From: an uncultured Gammaproteobacteria bacterium
GTDB taxonomy: Bacteria; Pseudomonadota; Gammaproteobacteria; JAAEPA01
Assembly: GCA_963731655.1 (NCBI GenBank)
Contig: CAVSWL010000005.1
Coordinates: 282,926-346,925 of the forward strand
Direction of reading: 5' to 3'
Length of the DNA: 64,000 nt
In this document: positions 44,339 through 51,772 of the stretch, in pieces
How the letters are laid out: each line of letters opens with the position of its first letter
Numbering within the stretch: the stretch's first letter is position 1
Program-made: the position numbers and the translations under genes
The notes under the pieces: generated by a model
What the model was told of the DNA's origin: nothing
What the model saw: only the letters and a program-made list of their open reading frames with translations
Database searches by the model: none

Positions 44339-45997
44339 ATGGTCATACATAACCGCCAGATCGCCAATCTATTTGCCAGACTAGCCGACCTGATGGAGTT
44401 GGATGGCGCCAATCCGTTTCGCGTCCGCTCCTACCGCCAGGCGGCACAGACCATCGCCGGCCTTTCCGATACCCTCGTCAAGCGGGTGCGAAACGGTGAA
44501 GATCTGACCGACCTGCCAAGTATCGGCAAAAGCATTGCGGAAAAGATCGCTACCATTGTGGAAACGGGGCGCTTGCCCCAGCTCGAGGAACTCGAAAAAC
44601 GGATGCCTGCGGAGCTCAGCGAGGTGATGAGGCTATCTGGCCTCGGATCCCAACGGGTAAAACTCTTGCACCAGGATCTGGGCGTCGATAGCCTGGCGGA
44701 TCTGGAGCGGGTGGTCGAGCGCCACGAGGTGCGCGAGCTTCCCGGCTTCGGCGCCAAGACCGAGCAGAGCATCGGCGAACGGCTGGCCCGCTGGGAAGGG
44801 GCTGAGCGACGCACGCCACTGCCGCAGGCGGAAGAAATCGCCCGGTCCCTGCTGGACTATCTCAAGGCTATCGACGGAATTAAGGATCTGACGATCGCAG
44901 GCAGTTATCGTCGCCGCAAGGACACCTTGGGCGACCTCGATATCCTGGTCACGGCCACGCAGGGCGCACCGGTAATGGAGCGATTCGTCGGCTACGACGA
45001 AGTGCGGGAGATTGTTACTCAAGGCCAAGCCCGTTCCACCGTGATCCTGAGCTCCGGCATGCAGGTGGATCTGCGGCGGGTGCCGCAGCTTAGCTACGGC
45101 GCGGCGCTGCATTATTTCACCGGTTCCAAGTCTCACAACATCGCGGTGCGCCGGATGGGTGTCAGGAAAGGTTTGAAGATCAACGAATACGGTGTGTTCC
45201 GAGGCGACAAGAGGGTCGGCGGACGCACCGAGGAGCAAGTCTACGAAAGCATCGACCTCCCTTATATCGAGCCGGAGCTACGCGAGAACCAAGGCGAGAT
45301 CGATGCTGCCGGTGAAGGCAAACTGCCGCATCTGGTTACGCTCGCGGACATACAAGGTGATTTGCATGCCCACACTCGGGCCAGCGATGGCTACGACAGC
45401 CTGGAGACCATGGCGGAAGGCGCCGCCAAATGTGGCTATGCTTATCTTGCCATCACCGACCATTCGCAGCATCTGACCGTGGCCCACGGCCTGGATGAAC
45501 GACGCCTTGCTGCGCAGATCAACGAAATCGATCGGCTAAATGACAAGCTGGATGGCCGCATTGAGCTGCTTAAGGCGATCGAATTGGACATCCTCGAGGA
45601 TGGCACCTTGGATCTTCCGGATACGATCCTGAAACAGCTCGACCTTCGGGTGTGCTCAGTCCATTACAAATTCGATCTACCGCGAAACAAGCAGACCGAG
45701 CGTATCCAGCGTGCCATGGAAAGCCCCTACTTCAATATCCTGGCTCATCCCACCGGACGCCTGATCGGGGAGCGTGAGGCTTATGAAGTGGATCTGGAAA
45801 AGCTCATCGAAGCAGCGGCCAAGCACGGCTGCTTTCTAGAGGTGAATGCGCAGCCAAAACGCCTGGATCTGGATCCTGCGGGGTGTCGGTTGGCCAAGGA
45901 GGCGGGCGTAAAGGTCGCCATCTCTACCGACGCGCCAGGCATGGCGCGTAGCGTTGACGGGCGCTGGCAACGGAAGGCGAAAGCCGGCGGGAAGTGA
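44339..45997 (+). CDS. polX: DNA polymerase X family protein (Pol-beta-like nucleotidyltransferase + PHP phosphoesterase)
   Basis: HhH motifs, GSYRRRKDTLGDLDILV NT-transferase motif, and a C-terminal PHP domain (DLHAHTRASDG...AITDHS). Confidence 0.85.
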   Translation: MVIHNRQIANLFARLADLMELDGANPFRVRSYRQAAQTIAGLSDTLVKRVRNGEDLTDLPSIGKSIAEKIATIVETGRLPQLEELEKRMPAELSEVMRLSGLGSQRVKLLHQDLGVDSLADLERVVERHEVRELPGFGAKTEQSIGERLARWEGAERRTPLPQAEEIARSLLDYLKAIDGIKDLTIAGSYRRRKDTLGDLDILVTATQGAPVMERFVGYDEVREIVTQGQARSTVILSSGMQVDLRRVPQLSYGAALHYFTGSKSHNIAVRRMGVRKGLKINEYGVFRGDKRVGGRTEEQVYESIDLPYIEPELRENQGEIDAAGEGKLPHLVTLADIQGDLHAHTRASDGYDSLETMAEGAAKCGYAYLAITDHSQHLTVAHGLDERRLAAQINEIDRLNDKLDGRIELLKAIELDILEDGTLDLPDTILKQLDLRVCSVHYKFDLPRNKQTERIQRAMESPYFNILAHPTGRLIGEREAYEVDLEKLIEAAAKHGCFLEVNAQPKRLDLDPAGCRLAKEAGVKVAISTDAPGMARSVDGRWQRKAKAGGK

Positions 45998-46472
45998 CTC
46001 GAGGGTGAAAGTCCTTGGAGACCTGATGACGGGAACTCTAGCCGAACAGCAAGGGTGTCCACGCGAGGTGGAATCTGAAGGAAGCTGAAGGCAAACGTCT
46101 GGCCCGAGGCACACGAACGCATGTGAGGCATCGTCTTGTGGGTGAGGAAGCGTCGGTGTGCGAAGCCGAAGTCATCCGGAACGAGGTGGTGTATATGCGG
46201 CGGGGATGGACGGAAAGTCACGCGTCTTACCTGGGAGATCTGTCCACTTGCCTTGTGCTAGAGCAACCGAGAGGTTGGTCGATGGGTGGGCAGAAGTGAG
46301 CAGACGGGATAGTAGGTGAGTGTCAGGCGAAGCTAGTGAGGCACTCCGAGACCGAAAGGTGGAGCAAACGGATAGGCCGAGCGTAACGACACTCACTGAA
46401 GGCCTGAACAAGTGAACCGGCCCGATGCCGGAACCTCGATGCGGAAGGAGACACCGTTATGACAACTGAGAT

Positions 46473-47013
46473 GTGCAACGACCCGGGAAGGAGGCGGCCG
46501 GCAGTCGCCATGAGCCCGGTGTTGGGGGTCAAGCGGCGACGGCGGCGACGGAAGCCATCGGACCACCGACCGAAGCGTTGATGGAGCAGATTCTAGACAG
46601 AGAAAACCTACGAAACGCGTTGCAGCGGGTACAGGCCAATAACGGGGCACCGGGCGTAGACGGGATGACCGTGGACGAGCTACCGGACCACCTACGGGAG
46701 CACTGGCCCGCGATCCGAGAGCAGCTACTGAATATGACCTACAGGCCATCGCCGGTGCGGGAAGTCTACGTGCCCAAACCCGGCGGTGGTCAGCGGATGC
46801 TCGGTATACCCACCGTACTGGACGGCTCATCACCCAAGCGGTTTTGCGGGTGATGAGTCCGATCTTCGAACCCGGTTTTTCAGAGCACAGCTATGGGTTT
46901 CGCCCTGGACGTAGCGCACACCAAGCGGTTGAGCAGGCGTGTGGCTATATAGCCGAGGGTTACCGATGGTTGGTCGATATTGACTTGGAAAAGTTTTTCG
47001 ACGATTCGTCATA
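46473..47013 (+). pseudogene. group II intron reverse transcriptase, N-terminal part (RT domains 0-4), frameshifted and interrupted
   Basis: ...TVDELPDHLREHWPAIREQLLNMTYRPSPVREVYVPKPGGGQRMLGIPTVLD, then a 1-nt frame change at ~46830, then RLITQAVLRVMSPIFEPGFSEHSYGFRPGRSAHQAVEQACGYIAEGYRWLVDIDLEKFFD. The gene then runs into the nested element. Confidence 0.7.
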
Positions 47014-47025
47014 ATGCCCCCTGGT

Positions 47026-49239
47026 TCATGAAGAGTGGTTAAACAAGTCGAGCTGATTATCTACTACATTGATTCTTAGTCCTTTTCTGCGGCCCAGATA
47101 AACGTGGACGGCTTTGAGTTCGCCATTCTTTACACGCTGCAACACCGTTTGGCGCGAGACCCCCAGGATTTTAGTCGCTTCCTGCATAGTCACGTAATTC
47201 TCCGGAGCCTGTTCGACAAAGCGATTGCGCAGTTCCTCGGTGATCCGGATTTGCCACGGTGCACCCGGCGTAACCTGCTCGCCGGCAACGAATCCGTCGT
47301 TCACCCATCGGTGCAGCGTCGAAGGTGCGAGGTCCAGGATCTTAGCCGCTTGTTTGATACTCACCAAATCACCTTCGGGTGACTCGATCGGTGGTTCGAA
47401 ACGGAGGATATTCCAATGTCGGCGTAAATTGCCGACGAGGTTGGCGGTGAAGCGCAATCCACGCGCCGTGGTTCGACCCTGTCTGTTCAGGATACCGGCG
47501 ATGACGGTGTCCGGATAGTGAGTGGCTAATCGGCGGAGCAGTTCGATGGTGTCTTCATCCGTGCGCACGGTGGCTGGTCGAGAACGTGGGAGGTTGACAT
47601 CGAGTTCGGTCAGCAGTCCACCGCGCCAGCGCAGGGTCAGATGCGCACGCTTTTCGTCGCGACATACCGTGATGATGACTTCCTCGAGCAGAGTACGCAG
47701 CAGTTCCTTTTGGTCGCGGCATGTTGTGGTGGGTGCACACCACACGCGTTTGAGATCGTTACCGAACGAAAGGATGGCACGCCGTTCATCGGCGCTCAGT
47801 GTTTTGGGTCGTTGGGTTTCTCGACGCTCAAGCTCGGCTTGGGCCTGTTCGAGGTGACGTAACCGTTGTTCCCATTCGGCCTCCAGGCCGCGTGCGACTA
47901 GCCTATTTTCGGGCTCTACAGATCGGTAGCGGCGTTCGGCCCGCTCGGCCTCATAGCGAGCGCGTTCGAGCGCCAAGCGCCATTGTGCCAAGGCGGCATC
48001 GTGGTTGGCTTCTATCTGCTCAGCGGCGATCAATGCGGCCTTCACACCGGCGGGCGAGAGTGCCTCAACAAAGGCCTCGGTGACAGCCTGATCGATTTGC
48101 ACACCGCCGACGTTGAGGCAATAGACGCCTCGACCCTCGACGATGTCTTTGCCTGCACAATGATAGCCTGGGGTGTGGTTTCTCCCGCGGTAATGGGTGC
48201 GCAGCCGGCGTCCGCAATGACCACAGGTTGCCAAACCTTGCAGCAAGGCCGCCCCTTCTCTCACCGCGCCGCCACCTTTGTGGGGTTGTGGGCGGGTATT
48301 ACTGGCAATACGGGTTTGATTGGCTTCATAGGTCGCCCAGTCGATATAACCTTCATGGTGTTCGTGGATGAGCACACCCCATTGCGACTGAGGGAGTTTG
48401 CGGACGCGTTTTCTCACCCGTCCGTGCTCATCGACATAGCGCTCATGTCGCGTTTTACCATAGACATAGGCTCCCGCATACACTGGGCTGCTCAGCACGC
48501 TGTGGATCGCATGATAGGTGGGTGCGACCCACTGGATGTCACGCAACTGGATCGACTGCAGAGGAAAGTCCAGACCCTCAGAACGGAACCATAACCAGAC
48601 CCGACGCACTGAGCCGAACTCTTCGAAGCGCTCAAAAACTGTGCGTATAGCGCCCGTGACCGCCTCATCGGGATGCAAGCGCACCTCACCGTCGGCTTCG
48701 CCCCAGACCAGGCCGACCGGCAGCCCTCGGCGCAGTTCCCCGCGCGTGGCTTTGTTGCGAATGCCGCCATCAAGACGGGCTCGCAGGATATGAAGCTCTG
48801 CTTCAGACATGGTCCCTTTCAACCCGAGCACGAGCCTGTCGTTGAACTGCGCCGGGTGATAGAGGCCATCGGCGTCACCAATCAGAGTATCGGTCATGGC
48901 ACACAGATCGAGCAACTGATACCAATGGGCGTTATTGCGTGCCAAGCGCGAGACCTCGAGGCCGAGAATGATCCCGACCCGTGCCAGCGCTACCTCAGCG
49001 GTCATGCGGGCGAAGCCGGTGCGCGCCGTGACGCTGGCACCGGACAGGCCCAGGTCTTCGTCAATGATCGTCACCTGCTCAGGTTGCCAACCGAGGGCGC
49101 AGGCCTTGTCGAGCAGCGCATATTGACGTTCGGTGGACTCGCGGTTGTATTCGACTTGGGTGGTGGTGGATTGGCGCACATAGACAAAGGCGGCGCGGTT
49201 TAAATGATTCGGCGTGACTTTGCTTGTTTCAGTCATCAT
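47026..49239 (-). CDS. large serine recombinase (resolvase catalytic domain, recombinase domain, zinc ribbon, coiled coil, C-terminal HTH)
   Basis: N-terminal AFVYVRQSTTTQ with catalytic Ser; zinc-ribbon cysteines CGHCGRRL...YHCAG; C-terminal MQEATKILGVSRQTVLQRV HTH. AGGAGAAAG SD before ATGATG. Confidence 0.85.
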   Translation of the reverse strand: MMTETSKVTPNHLNRAAFVYVRQSTTTQVEYNRESTERQYALLDKACALGWQPEQVTIIDEDLGLSGASVTARTGFARMTAEVALARVGIILGLEVSRLARNNAHWYQLLDLCAMTDTLIGDADGLYHPAQFNDRLVLGLKGTMSEAELHILRARLDGGIRNKATRGELRRGLPVGLVWGEADGEVRLHPDEAVTGAIRTVFERFEEFGSVRRVWLWFRSEGLDFPLQSIQLRDIQWVAPTYHAIHSVLSSPVYAGAYVYGKTRHERYVDEHGRVRKRVRKLPQSQWGVLIHEHHEGYIDWATYEANQTRIASNTRPQPHKGGGAVREGAALLQGLATCGHCGRRLRTHYRGRNHTPGYHCAGKDIVEGRGVYCLNVGGVQIDQAVTEAFVEALSPAGVKAALIAAEQIEANHDAALAQWRLALERARYEAERAERRYRSVEPENRLVARGLEAEWEQRLRHLEQAQAELERRETQRPKTLSADERRAILSFGNDLKRVWCAPTTTCRDQKELLRTLLEEVIITVCRDEKRAHLTLRWRGGLLTELDVNLPRSRPATVRTDEDTIELLRRLATHYPDTVIAGILNRQGRTTARGLRFTANLVGNLRRHWNILRFEPPIESPEGDLVSIKQAAKILDLAPSTLHRWVNDGFVAGEQVTPGAPWQIRITEELRNRFVEQAPENYVTMQEATKILGVSRQTVLQRVKNGELKAVHVYLGRRKGLRINVVDNQLDLFNHSS

Positions 49240-49453
49240 CTTTCTCCTGCCTTGGGGCTTGCGGCGTTGCCGTCTGTGCAATCAGACGAGCCAGCACGTC
49301 GACGACGGCCAGGCGTTGTTCGTCGTTCAGTTGTGTCCACACCGCTTCGTGGGGGCAGGGGATGTCCAAGAACATCAGATGTCTTTGTTGCACAGTGGCG
49401 CTCCTCTGAGTTGGTGATACGTTGTCGAAGAGCATTGACGAGAGAGCCGGCAT
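49229..49453 (-). CDS. small ORF (74 aa) whose stop overlaps the recombinase start
   Basis: Stop TGA overlaps the recombinase ATGATGA (gat gat gac tga / atg atg act). Acidic C-terminus. Could be an accessory or directionality-factor-like protein. Confidence 0.4.
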   Translation of the reverse strand: MPALSSMLFDNVSPTQRSATVQQRHLMFLDIPCPHEAVWTQLNDEQRLAVVDVLARLIAQTATPQAPRQEKDDD

Positions 49454-49711
49454 GGAGCAAGTCGGAGAGCGGGGCGAGGACTTGCTTAGGCGCCGTTCGC
49501 CTAGCCTCAGAAGGGGCGTCTTCAGCCGAGGGCCAGTCAGTCCAATCGGCCGGGATCAGTGATCGACTTTCATCTGGGAGGATCAGTAGTAGGTGGAGCT
49601 GACCTCCTCGGTGGGTTTGCCATAACGCTTGCAGCGTTTGGCCTTCTAACGGATGGCGTCTACGAGTGATAGTAACGGGTCGCGGAAAGTCTTTGAGATG
49701 GGTAGTGTGTC

Positions 49712-50560
49712 GTGTTTTCTTTCGACCGAGTCAACCACGACATGCTCGTGAGTCGGGTAGCGAGGAAAATCAAGGACAAGCGACTCCTGAAACTGATCCG
49801 ACGCTATCTGAGCGCAGGGATCATGAGCGGGGGGGTGGTCAGTGCTCGACAAACAGGGACCCCTCAGGGGTCACCGCTTTCACCGTTATTATCGAATATC
49901 CTATTGGATGACTTTGATAAAGAACTCGAACGCAGGGGCCACTGCTTCTGCCGCTACGCTGATGACGCCAATATCTACGTCAAAAGCCGGCGTGCGGGAG
50001 AACGGGTGATGGCGTCACTAACGCATTTCCTGGAAGGCCGATTGCGATTGAAGGTGAATCGAGCCAAAAGTGCCGTGGATCGGCCCTGGAACCGAGCGTT
50101 TCTGGGCTACACGGTGACGAACCACCGCTCGCCGCGATTGAAACCGGCACCGAAGTCGGTCAAAAGGGCGAAGGATCGGATACGTCAGATTACCCAGCAG
50201 GGGCGGGGTCGTAATATCCGCCAGGTCATCAAGGAGATCAATGAATTTACCCGAGGATGGGTAGGCTACTTTCGGCTTGCCAGCGTGAAAGCCGCGTTCG
50301 AGCAGTTGGATCAATGGCTACGTCGTCGACTGCGCAAAATCCTTTGGGAGCAGTGGCGTAAACCAAAGACTCGGCGTCGAAAGCTGATAGCGCTAGGGGT
50401 TGAGGCGACGCGGGCACGTAAAGCAGCGGCCACCGGTCTTGGGGCTTGGTGGAACGCAGGGGCTTCGCACATGCATGCGGCAGTGACCATTCGGCTACTG
50501 GCTCAGTGGGGACTTCTCGGTCTGCTAGATCAACTCCGCAGTTGGCAGCGGTCCACTTGA
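49712..50560 (+). CDS. group II intron reverse transcriptase, C-terminal part (RT domains 5-7 incl. YADD, plus maturase X domain)
   Basis: Resumes at FSFDRVNHDMLVSRVARKIKDKRLLKLIRRYLSAG, continues through the YADDANIY motif and the thumb/X domain. No En domain. Confidence 0.75.
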   Translation: MFSFDRVNHDMLVSRVARKIKDKRLLKLIRRYLSAGIMSGGVVSARQTGTPQGSPLSPLLSNILLDDFDKELERRGHCFCRYADDANIYVKSRRAGERVMASLTHFLEGRLRLKVNRAKSAVDRPWNRAFLGYTVTNHRSPRLKPAPKSVKRAKDRIRQITQQGRGRNIRQVIKEINEFTRGWVGYFRLASVKAAFEQLDQWLRRRLRKILWEQWRKPKTRRRKLIALGVEATRARKAAATGLGAWWNAGASHMHAAVTIRLLAQWGLLGLLDQLRSWQRST

Positions 50561-51084
50561 ACCGCCGTGTACGGTCCCGTACGCACGGTGGTGTGGGCGG
50601 ACGGGAGGAGTAATGCTCCCTCCGACCCGATTCTCACAGCACGGCGAACTTACAAAATATGCGACTTGGAGTCGATCAAGCACGCCGCGGTTGGCTGGAA
50701 GCGGGTGATGTGATCAACACCCGTCGTATTGCTGATCTACGCCGGTTGTTGCAACGCGACTGAGCGTACGTCAGCAGATTGGCTAGCGATCCGGGGACAG
50801 CATGCATAGCCGATTATCGCTGCCCATCAACCTTTTCTTGCGTTTCCCCGAGGCAATGGTTCGACCGGTTGACGGCCGGGGGGATGGGCTGGGTTTGAGC
50901 ATCACCAATCGCCTGCTTGGAAAGCTCGATAGGCAGCTGGTAGTGTATAATCAACTCGATATGGGCAACTCCTGCCCCTATTCTTCTGACCGAACCTTTA
51001 AAGGAACTCACTCCGATTGTTGCGATAGAAGGACATCGGTCGGGGATTCATTGGATCGATTGGCGAATGAATGTGATACGTCGA

Positions 51085-51772
51085 TCAAATAGTGAGGTGT
51101 TTCCGCGCCATATCCTTTTTAATAATTTTTAGTGAGAGGCCATACCGAAGTGTTTCGGGCACCTCGTTGATGGCAAGAATGTCGTTGCACTCCACGGCGT
51201 CATAGTCCTCTTTATGGGTGAAGCTCAGCGGAACAATGCCGAAGTTGACCATGTTCTGCCAATGGATGCGGGCGAAACTCTTAGCGAGGATCACGCGCAG
51301 CCCCAGCGAGCGCGGCGCAAGGGCAGCGTGTTCACGGCTCGATCCCTGCCCGTAGTTATCCCCGGCAACCACAAACAAGCCCGTATCGCGATAGGGCTTG
51401 GTGCGCTCGCAAAATGTCGCATCGATCGGTTCGAAGACGAACCTGGCGATTGCCTCAATGTTGCTGCGGTAAGGCAGCACGCGGGCCCCCGCGGGCATGA
51501 TCTCATCGGTGGAGATTGTTGTCTTCAAACTTGAGCAGTACCGGCCCCTTGATTCGATTCGGCAAGGGTTCAAGTACGGGCAGCGGCTTGATGTTGGGAC
51601 CTTTTTCGATGGGCACGTCATGGCCATCGGGCAACGGAGCTAACATGACCAGGGTGCCGGTCGCATCCTGCGTAAGGGTCCGGTCGATCTTGATCGAGAT
51701 CTCCGCGCCCGGTGTCAGATTGCCCTGCATCAGGTGCGAAGCGATCGATGTTTGTGCAACGTTCATAGCCAT
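51085..51772 (-). pseudogene. aconitase-family remnant: short N-terminal segment fused to the C-terminal swivel domain, with a 1-nt frameshift
   Basis: ORF 51503-51772 has ...IDRTLTQDATGTLVMLAPL (an N-terminal aconitase motif) followed by the linker ...IKGPVLLKFEDNNL. ORF 51085-51627 continues in another frame with STDEIMPAGARVLPYRSN...GDNYGQGSSREHAALAP...SFARIH. The core domains are missing. Confidence 0.5.

Follow-up and report, generated by a model that had tools for sequence, protein, structure and literature searches.

A serine-recombinase element nested in the reverse transcriptase gene of a group II intron that splits polX in an uncultured gammaproteobacterium

Introduction

Site-specific integration by large serine recombinases is a well known class of mechanism, represented by the integrases of phages such as Bxb1 and phiC31 (PHROG 95), by TnpX of Tn4451 and TndX of Tn5397, and by the enzymes XisF and SpoIVCA of the fdxN and skin elements. 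Here we describe a 64,000-nt stretch of DNA from an uncultured gammaproteobacterium (GenBank assembly GCA_963731655.1, contig CAVSWL010000005.1, positions 282,926 to 346,925; the whole stretch is hereafter called the window), in which a small element carrying a large serine recombinase gene lies inside the reverse transcriptase (RT) gene of a class C-type group II intron, itself inserted in the coding sequence of polX.

The recombinase of the window shares its domain order with the phage integrases, and its element follows the same logic of attP x attB recombination, with conserved arms and a non-palindromic central dinucleotide that sets the orientation. The element is, however, not carried by a phage, and its target is a degenerate site on another mobile element rather than a single chromosomal gene. 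As with TnpX and TndX, a non-phage element has a large serine recombinase as its sole mobility enzyme; by analogy, this enzyme probably performs both excision and insertion at a dinucleotide core. The elements of TnpX and TndX, however, carry cargo and use many loosely defined sites, whereas the element of the window measures 2.7 kb, has essentially no cargo and uses one motif-coding site; the C-terminal region of its recombinase holds two excisionase-like helix-turn-helix (HTH) domains and has no match to DUF4368. Tn5397 of C. difficile displays the opposite arrangement, an intron inside a transposon. Like the fdxN and skin elements, the element of the window splits an open reading frame (ORF) that precise excision would restore, but those elements are single-copy and are excised in the course of host development, whereas the present family is multicopy, crosses phyla and has a selfish target. 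The IS607 family offers another minimal, insertion-sequence-like element moved by a serine recombinase; its enzymes, in contrast, are small (about 190 aa in the NCBIfam model), have an N-terminal HTH and show low target specificity. Homing endonuclease genes, inteins and twintrons also exploit the hard-to-change sequence of conserved motifs and nest in other mobile elements. The element of the window differs from them in its predicted use of conservative serine recombination and in disabling its carrier rather than splicing out.

The host intron resembles class C introns, such as GsI-IIC of Geobacillus stearothermophilus and the Oceanobacillus iheyensis intron, in the type of its protein, the absence of an endonuclease, the CGC of domain V (DV), a size of about 2 kb and a short likely intron-binding site 1 (IBS1; CCGAY). 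It departs from them in lying within coding sequence without a significant upstream hairpin, and not after a terminator or an attC site; moreover, the window copy lacks 2 nt of GUGCG and is interrupted.

A search of the full-text literature returned no serine-recombinase element that targets group II intron RT genes, although its coverage was incomplete and a prior description elsewhere is possible. A large systematic survey of recombinases lists target genes, and neither its main text nor its supplements include an RT or a group II intron among them (PMC10083194). The apparent novelty lies in an element this small, in its restriction to targets within another mobile element, in the HTH domains fused to the recombinase and in the small ORF that accompanies it.

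Results

Structure of the nested locus

The RT ORF of the intron starts at position 46581 (MEQILDRENL...), changes frame at 46822/46823 (VLD|RLITQ) and breaks off after ...DIDLEKFFD (47002); RVNHDML... resumes at 49727 and the frame runs to a stop at 50560 (Table 1). A first-pass annotation had already described an RT ORF with an internal 1-nt frameshift, cut at FFD and resuming at RVNHD 2.7 kb further on, and our analysis bears this out. It had also proposed a nested mobile element in the RT gene: the split by a 2.7 kb insert stands, while the identity of the insert had not been recognised. With the frameshift repaired and the two parts joined, the gene encodes a 418-aa protein with RVT_1 and GIIM domains that scores 422 bits on TIGR04416 (cutoff 300). 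A Pfam domain search of this reconstructed protein gave no HNH match, in agreement with the endonuclease-less intron protein claimed earlier. The interrupted RT fragment always meets a stop codon (TCA TAA) 10-12 nt into the element.

Table 1. Coordinates of the features of the polX locus (positions in the window)
Feature	Position	Strand	Description and basis
polX exon 1	44339..45931	+	531 codons, end ...ATC TCT ACC GAC; PolX by Pfam and NCBIfam
Group II intron, class C type by protein	45932..50631	+	4,700 nt; 1,976 nt without the insert; blastn and alignment to L085 and L086; Rfam
In-intron TGA	45995..45997	+	Terminates the annotated 552-aa PolX; from ORF list
Ribozyme domain I-IV core	46058..46333	+	D1D4-3 100.4 bits, D1D4-1 31.9 bits
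Candidate EBS1 (GUCGG)	46152..46156	+	Domain I terminal loop (Rfam alignment); complements exon 1 end CCGAC
RT N-terminal part, residues 1-141	46581..47002	+	1-nt deletion 46822/46823; ends in FFD codons
attL TT core	46997..46998		First two bases of second Phe codon; junction alignment
Serine-recombinase element	46999..49722	-	2,724 bp counting one TT core; 99.8-100% identical to L081-L084
Large serine recombinase, 736 aa	47026..49236	-	ORF finder extends it to 49281 (751 aa); Pfam, NCBIfam and PHROG
Small ORF, 54 aa, GTG start	49229..49393	-	Overlaps recombinase start by 8 nt; called as a gene in L081-L084
attR TT core	49721..49722		Junction alignment
RT/maturase C-terminal part	49723..50560	+	Rest of Phe codon and Asp, RVNHD, YADD, X/maturase domain, stop; 99.9% identical to L085
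Domains V and VI	50560..50631	+	RF00029 41.6 bits; CGC at catalytic-triad position; bulged A 50625
polX exon 2	50632..50763	+	Encodes SHSTANLQNMRLGVDQARRGWLEAGDVINTRRIADLRRLLQRD then stop; frame continues exon 1; homolog alignment

Examination of the insert revealed a recombinase with, in order, Resolvase, Recombinase and Zn_ribbon_recom domains (PF00239, residues 31-182; PF07508, 211-327; PF13408, 346-403, in the numbering of the 751-aa ORF), followed by two C-terminal excisionase-like HTH_17 domains. The match to phrog_95, a phage serine integrase family, covers residues 14-545 and leaves about 190 extra residues that hold the two excisionase-type HTH domains. Ser23, in VRQS, is the putative catalytic residue, and solved recombinase structures are matched weakly by sequence similarity. 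The best NCBIfam match was XisF (NF041201), but membership was rejected at 60.6 bits against an equivalog cutoff of 375, as was membership of the IS607 family (NF033518, 22.4 bits against a cutoff of 110, over the C-terminal HTH only). A prophage integrase was rejected as well, given a 2.7-kb element of two genes without a phage match; among 50,697 phage records the recombinase had no match (E < 1e-30). No copy of the element was present among 5,426 complete E. coli genomes, and a promoter scan of the element gave nothing useful on the recombinase strand.

The small ORF ends 8 nt past the recombinase start codon in 35 unique variants, in which the motif (L/V)W-x-Q-(L/I)-x4-R-x6-LA-x-LIA-(K/Q) (core WxQLxxxxRxxxxxxLAxLIAx) is kept, followed by an acidic tail. 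It belongs to no family of Pfam, PHROG or PADLOC, and we suspect that it may act as an accessory or directionality factor.

A recombinase family found in intron RT genes

At least 8,000 homologs of the recombinase were found. Among the best 120, identity ranges from 73 to 100% and length is about 736 aa; many of the contigs that hold them measure 2.7-3 kb, the usual outcome when a repeat with many copies is assembled. When one genome per species was scanned, 353 stretches matched, and the 80 loci retained from them belong to Gamma-, Beta- and Alphaproteobacteria, Gemmatimonadota, Anaerolineae, Zixibacteria, spirochaetes, Pirellulales, Actinomycetes and Myxococcota, and some metagenome-assembled genomes (MAGs) hold several copies each. 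Loci with a recombinase identity of at least 57% were taken as the family (n=68), and RT fragments were sought by profile search of their six-frame translated flanks. An N-terminal RT fragment was found at 46 of the 51 family loci having at least 140 nt of right flank, and a C-terminal fragment at 42 of 51 with enough left flank. These fragments are antisense to the recombinase and are broken at RT residues 140-141. Most of the exceptions have extra DNA between the recombinase gene and the end of the element, and two (L034 and L049) lie in non-RT sequence ending xVLD.

Extra DNA after the recombinase gene was observed at L028, L030, L054 and L059, with the palindrome CACTGTAATTCGTCACGTGACGAATTACAGTG in L030 and L054; at L054 an RT fragment lies more than 1 kb further off. 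These loci may be cargo-bearing variants or may have received a further nested insertion.

Alignment of 21 attL and 38 attR sequences, in RT orientation, resolved the junctions. On the left, a variable RT arm (...GAY NTN NNN NNN TWY) is followed by TT and by a conserved element arm (GGAT-N5-TCATAATGCCCCCTGGTTCATGA), which begins CGAC... in the subfamily of the window. On the right, a conserved element arm (GGGTAGTGTGTCGTGnTTTCC) is followed by TT and by a variable RT arm (CGAC NNN ATC NNN CAY). The change from conserved element arm to variable RT arm falls exactly at the TT, and nothing is duplicated beyond this shared core. The consensus target, tgggTngTnGAnGcnGAccTcnagaanTtc-TT-cGACnnnaTcnacCAcgac, is DNA for W-V-V-D-A-D-L-x-x-F-F-D-x-I-x-H-D. 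Such a pattern is the predicted signature of two-site recombination at a shared non-palindromic dinucleotide, a property that would explain the constant antisense orientation. The attP site deduced from the arms would read ...GGGTAGTGTGTCGTGnTTTCY-TT-SGAY...TCATAATGCCCCCTGG, and the predicted junction of the circular form GGGTAG...TTTCC-TT-GGAT...CATAATGCCC.

A sister clade (L066, L067 and L068), whose recombinase is about 40% identical to that of the window, lies antisense in group II intron RT genes at a second motif, G(I/V)PT, around RT residue 78. Both of its junctions share CCGACG, and its element arm, GGCATAATGCACCTCATG, resembles that of the main family. The other members of the 40% clade (L069-L080) are mostly not beside RT genes.

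Annotated carriers of the family include the TOL plasmids pWW53 and pDK1, a Pseudomonas mandelii plasmid, and Mycetohabitans, Mesorhizobium and Bradyrhizobium plasmids. The plasmid copies are annotated merely as 'recombinase family protein' and 'hypothetical protein', and RT remnants flank both junctions in the two plasmids examined, pWW53 and that of P. mandelii. On pWW53 (L087, NC_008275: 72509-81712) and pDK1 (NC_014124) the element adjoins xylS and its recombinase gene is frameshifted; nothing in the current annotation of these plasmids points to an intron or a mobile element.

Recent mobility among diverse introns

Two JGI and two Logan contigs (L081-L084) are 99.8-100% identical to positions 46996-49729 of the window, one of them (L081) over 2,734 nt with no mismatch. 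Their flanks represent at least three RT genes other than that of the window: one reads ...IEGDLRACFD|RISHSWLL, another ...VEADIKSFFD|RIHHDRLI, with the same left arm on L084, and a third ...FFD|KVNHEWML, on L083 and L084. In all, copies at this level of identity are spread over four or five distinct RT genes. As judged from these sequences, the copies show the element to be mobile on its own, and recently so.

When the element is removed in silico at the TT, the RT ORFs are healed: five full-length proteins score 364-423 bits on the whole TIGR04416 model and a sixth, partial one, 207 bits. Mutual identity among ten restored RTs and the RT of the window is 28-68%. The host introns belong to three Rfam ribozyme types, D1D4-2 (L006), D1D4-3 (L065 and L014) and D1D4-6 (L029), each with a DV match nearby. 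Given this diversity of RTs and ribozymes, the element is not tied to one intron lineage but colonises group II introns in general.

In the MAG CAVWEM, from an uncultured gammaproteobacterium (L006, L007, L008, L009, L038 and L047), the composite of intron and element occurs at five or more loci. It measures about 4.58 kb, is bounded by GTGTG...CTCAC and is 99.85-100% identical over the shared stretch, three pairs being exactly 100%. The 5' flanks of these composites translate to ...RPNHVWSTDI, which we take to resemble a motif of IS3-type transposases. If that resemblance holds, CAVWEM would harbor three nested levels, an insertion sequence holding an intron that in turn holds a recombinase element. 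The copies may have multiplied by transposition of the insertion sequence, by retrohoming of the intron with its insert or through repeated integration events.

A different rearrangement is seen at L014, where the RT fragments on the two sides do not match: the N-terminal part is 66% identical to the RT of the window and class C-like, and the C-terminal part is 29% identical and resembles that of L037. The mismatch suggests that element copies residing in different introns have recombined and thereby rearranged the genome.

The host intron and its insertion site in polX

Both ends of the intron were set by two intact copies that agree, L085 (ENA sample ERZ25039549; 99% identical protein) and L086 (88%). 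Homology to L085 spans positions 45932 to 50631, the 3' coordinate being exact, and L085 is contiguous at the point where the window carries its insert; the intact relative measures 1,994 nt. Group-II-D1D4-3 (RF02001) matched positions 46058-46225 with 100.4 bits (gathering score 32), D1D4-1 matched 46258-46333 with 31.9 bits, under its threshold, and RF00029, which covers DV and domain VI (DVI), matched 50560-50631 with 41.6 bits against a gathering score of 40. In the Rfam alignment the bulged A of DVI (50625) is 7 nt from the 3' end of the intron, and domains V and VI differ from those of L085 and L086 at one position only. Much of what had been recognised at first sight is upheld by these results: the Rfam D1D4-3 and RF00029 matches and the RT/maturase protein confirm a group II intron, the DV and DVI hairpins with their bulged A are recovered, and the size without the insert (~1.98 kb) is close to the ~1.9 kb claimed.

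Among solved structures the intron protein best matches the GsI-IIC RT (6ar1, 518.6 bits, residues 1-404), followed by 7uim, the class C protein of Eubacterium rectale (374 bits), and by further fragments of class C RTs; structures outside class C score far lower (IIB 6me0, 137 bits; LtrA, IIA, 135 bits). DV carries CGC where the Rfam consensus has AGC, and CGC is typical of class C. The class C type proposed earlier is thus retained: it is supported by the protein match and the missing endonuclease domain, not by the target site.

The intron had been thought to follow the polX stop codon directly. This is not so, as the TGA concerned sits 64 nt within the intron, whose 5' end lies 66 nt upstream of where it had been placed. 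Directly 3' of the intron, about 42-43 codons in the frame of exon 1 read HSTANLQNMRLGVDQARRGWLEAGDVINTRRIADLRRLLQRD*, the C-terminal end of PolX. Exon 1 joined to positions 50632-50763 gives a 574-aa PolX that matches NF006375 over positions 3-569 of 571 with 530 bits, against positions 3-529 and 485 bits for the annotated 552-aa ORF. Across the junction, a gap-free alignment with Thermus thermophilus PolX (3b0x) extends through STDAH. Uninterrupted 574-aa orthologs (P0242, 80% identical; P0243, 77%) likewise align with the joined protein free of gaps and read ...VKVAISTDAHS(V/T)... at this place. As to affiliation, the PolX homologs lead no further than Chromatiales-like Gammaproteobacteria, at 66% identity. 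The insertion point lies in the PHP motif STD|SHS, exon 2 beginning with TCT CAC AGC at 50632, and the predicted spliced product AISTD|SHSTANL is in frame, with Ser where the orthologs have Ala. Both exons are free of stops and frameshifts and match the orthologs.

Since the intron interrupts the polX coding sequence, the annotated 552-aa PolX is evidently a truncated read-through product of an intron-split gene. In public records the truncated form (P0241) stands as an ordinary protein, although its last 21 residues (APGMARSVDGRWQRKAKAGGK) are translated intron. It is without the last metal-binding PHP motif, so that the gene calls at this locus are misleading.

The upstream exon ends in CCGAY at all three independent intron sites (window, L085 and L086), and CCGAC, the last five bases of exon 1, is a likely IBS1 that would pair with the candidate exon-binding site 1 (EBS1) GUCGG in the domain I loop. 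The 60 nt upstream of the polX insertion site fold no better than shuffled sequence (z = -1.07), and terminator targeting was rejected for the polX copy on the lack of a significant hairpin there. Placement at a gene end had been read as a sign of such targeting; with a site inside polX and no hairpin upstream, this argument fails. Apart from this unusual location, the intron is an ordinary one of class C that has decayed.

Another target is seen in L086 (2381-2460), where the class C intron begins 1 nt after the DV/DVI match of another group II intron, of HNH type, which encodes a 563-aa protein at 709-2400. It seems that the DVI hairpin of this neighbour served the class C intron as a stem-loop target.

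Probable decay of the polX intron copy

The intron of the window starts GCGCCAGG where its intact relatives have GTGCGCCAGG. Its 5' end reads GCGCC against GTGCGCC in L085 and L086, i.e. 2 nt of GUGCG are missing, and the conserved 5' GUGYG is present in the lineage but not in the window copy. Relative to L085, 41 differences fall in 45932-47002 (16 of them deleted bases, including the 2 of GUGCG) and one in the 905 nt of 49727-50631, 16 nt from the 3' end. Beyond GUGCG, the 5' half has lost 14 bases and gained about 20 substitutions with respect to the intact copy. The changes follow a gradient, with ~30 in 45932-46480, ~7 in 46481-47002, none in the element (compared with L081) and the single one in the last 905 nt. 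Most of the remaining 5' differences either remove one C from a CC or CCG context or, read on the sense strand, replace C by G or T. A sense-strand C is affected in about two thirds of the window-specific changes, and L085 and L086 agree against the window at nearly all differing positions.

The ribozyme models reflect these changes: D1D4-3 scores 135.5-136.3 bits in the intact relatives and 100.4 in the window (about 35 lower), and D1D4-1 51.5-59.6 against 31.9 bits (20-28 lower). From these comparisons we conclude that the ribozyme is damaged and that the RT has been destroyed twice over, by the frameshift and by the insert. The missing GUGCG bases, the 5' deletions, the frameshift and the insert together support the earlier suspicion that the intron is dead. 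With the ribozyme damaged and the RT destroyed in two ways, polX has most likely been inactivated at its last PHP motif, an interpretation that we hold with less confidence than the anatomy of the locus.

Discussion

In the explanation that we propose, a class C group II intron would have retrohomed into polX after CCGAC, at the Thr-Asp codons of the PHP-domain motif STD(A/S)H, and this copy would then have decayed through loss at the 5' GUGCG, 5' deletions and substitutions and a frameshift in the RT gene. The element is predicted to integrate by conservative site-specific recombination between its own attP and the DNA encoding the RT motif D-x-D-x-x-x-(F/Y)-F-D-x-(I/V)-x-H, and strand exchange at the TT that opens the second Phe codon would give the orientation antisense to the RT. 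As nearly all RTs of group II introns keep this motif, introns of many classes in many phyla should be open to colonisation by the element; as insertion cuts the RT before its active site, an invaded intron should be unable to move on its own. Such an element would be a parasite of a parasite.

We consider this explanation as a whole, that of a decayed class C intron splitting polX and bearing an RT-targeting serine-recombinase element, to be likely. Confidence is high for the anatomy and for the family-wide target; the junctions, the recent mobility and the healing of the RT ORFs in silico were likewise observed. It is moderate for the mechanism of recombination and lower for the inactivation of polX. 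How recombination proceeds chemically, what the small ORF does, excision and the loss of polX splicing are inferred.

Several points weigh against parts of the explanation. A degenerate pattern for the excised circle or attP junction gave 0 matches in assembled JGI metagenome contigs, so that neither excision nor a circular intermediate was seen there; junctions of this kind are seldom retained in assemblies. Five of the 51 loci are without an adjacent RT fragment, and some carry extra cargo. The intact state of both polX exons means that the insertion is recent or that some splicing persists. An exact 49-nt pattern of the degenerate 5' end had 0 matches in JGI metagenomes, so that the deletions are not independently confirmed; these C-biased losses might be assembly errors, in which case the intron could be less dead than described above. 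Against such an artefact, the element in mid-intron is 100% identical to an independent assembly and the neighbouring long ORFs are intact.

Candidate causes of the 5'-weighted, C-biased decay are gene conversion of an old copy, strand-specific mutation and a local assembly artefact. Under the first, an old, decayed polX intron would have been patched from a young, element-bearing copy over a tract that begins inside the RT gene and stops just short of the 3' end; the element would then not have entered polX through its own recombinase. Such a history agrees with the gradient of window-specific changes, and the mismatched RT parts of L014 (66% and 29% identical to the RT of the window) show that the flanks of the element can be chimeric. 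However, no donor copy is present within the 64-kb window and the junctions are indistinguishable from those of direct integration, and we regard gene conversion as possible but rather doubtful.

The intron might instead still splice, helped by maturase from intact copies at other places in the genome. On this view polX would work, and long-read consensus errors in a repeated element would account for the 5' deletions. Exons that are undamaged and ortholog-like are what one would expect in this case, and intact copies with a 99% identical protein do exist in nature. The deletions, almost all of a single C in runs of C and without confirmation in an independent assembly, also have a pattern that such errors can give. 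Yet the element is identical over 2,734 nt to an independent JGI contig and the 3' 905 nt differ once from L085, so the errors would have had to stay in one part of the repeat, with the neighbouring long ORFs spared. The loss of U2-G3 of GUGCG and the drop of 35 bits in the D1 model argue further against splicing, and we find its persistence unlikely.

A third alternative makes the element a partner of the intron rather than a parasite: a regulated switch, like the fdxN element with XisF or the skin element with SpoIVCA, whose excision would restore the RT and turn intron mobility on. Precise removal at the TT does restore RT ORFs, the best NCBIfam match is XisF (at a score far under its cutoff), and the conserved small ORF could act as a directionality factor. 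On the other side, the same element in unrelated introns and phyla, with identical copies in different RTs, is how an independent mobile element behaves; many invaded introns, such as those of the window and pWW53, are decayed, and no excised form was seen in the assembled JGI metagenome contigs. A regulated switch therefore seems very improbable. Finally, the idea that the insert is an ordinary insertion sequence of low specificity, in the RT gene by chance, could appeal to the few family members outside RT genes (L034 and L049), but it is effectively refuted by the identical codon-level site and orientation at 46 of 51 loci, in RTs 28-68% identical, and by the use of a second conserved RT motif in the sister clade.

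On the proposed explanation of RT-targeted integration, a very abundant recombinase family (at least 8,000 homologs in many phyla) appears to be confined almost entirely to the RT genes of group II introns. Its members may account for many of the 'fragmented' intron RT genes in genome surveys, and suggest a natural brake on intron spread. Bacterial mobile DNA would thereby gain a third trophic level, from insertion sequence to intron to recombinase element. For engineering, these elements supply hundreds of natural attP/attB pairs, in which a degenerate target site is accepted by one enzyme; the small ORF and the excisionase-like domains fused to the recombinase may be relevant to the control of directionality. 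Much more tentatively, and with considerable doubt, serine-recombinase elements could be specialised parasites of group II introns in at least two clades, at the FFD and GIPT codons, which may also spread by retrohoming through intron RNA with RT supplied in trans, limit intron proliferation and reshuffle introns and genomes by recombination between copies. The location of the element in domain IV is what would allow it to be copied through intron RNA.

Just downstream of polX, two adjacent ORFs of 180 and 89 aa on the minus strand (51085-51772), of which the translations were read only, resemble the C- and N-terminal ends of an aconitase-family hydratase whose middle is missing. They may represent a deletion remnant or a pseudogene.

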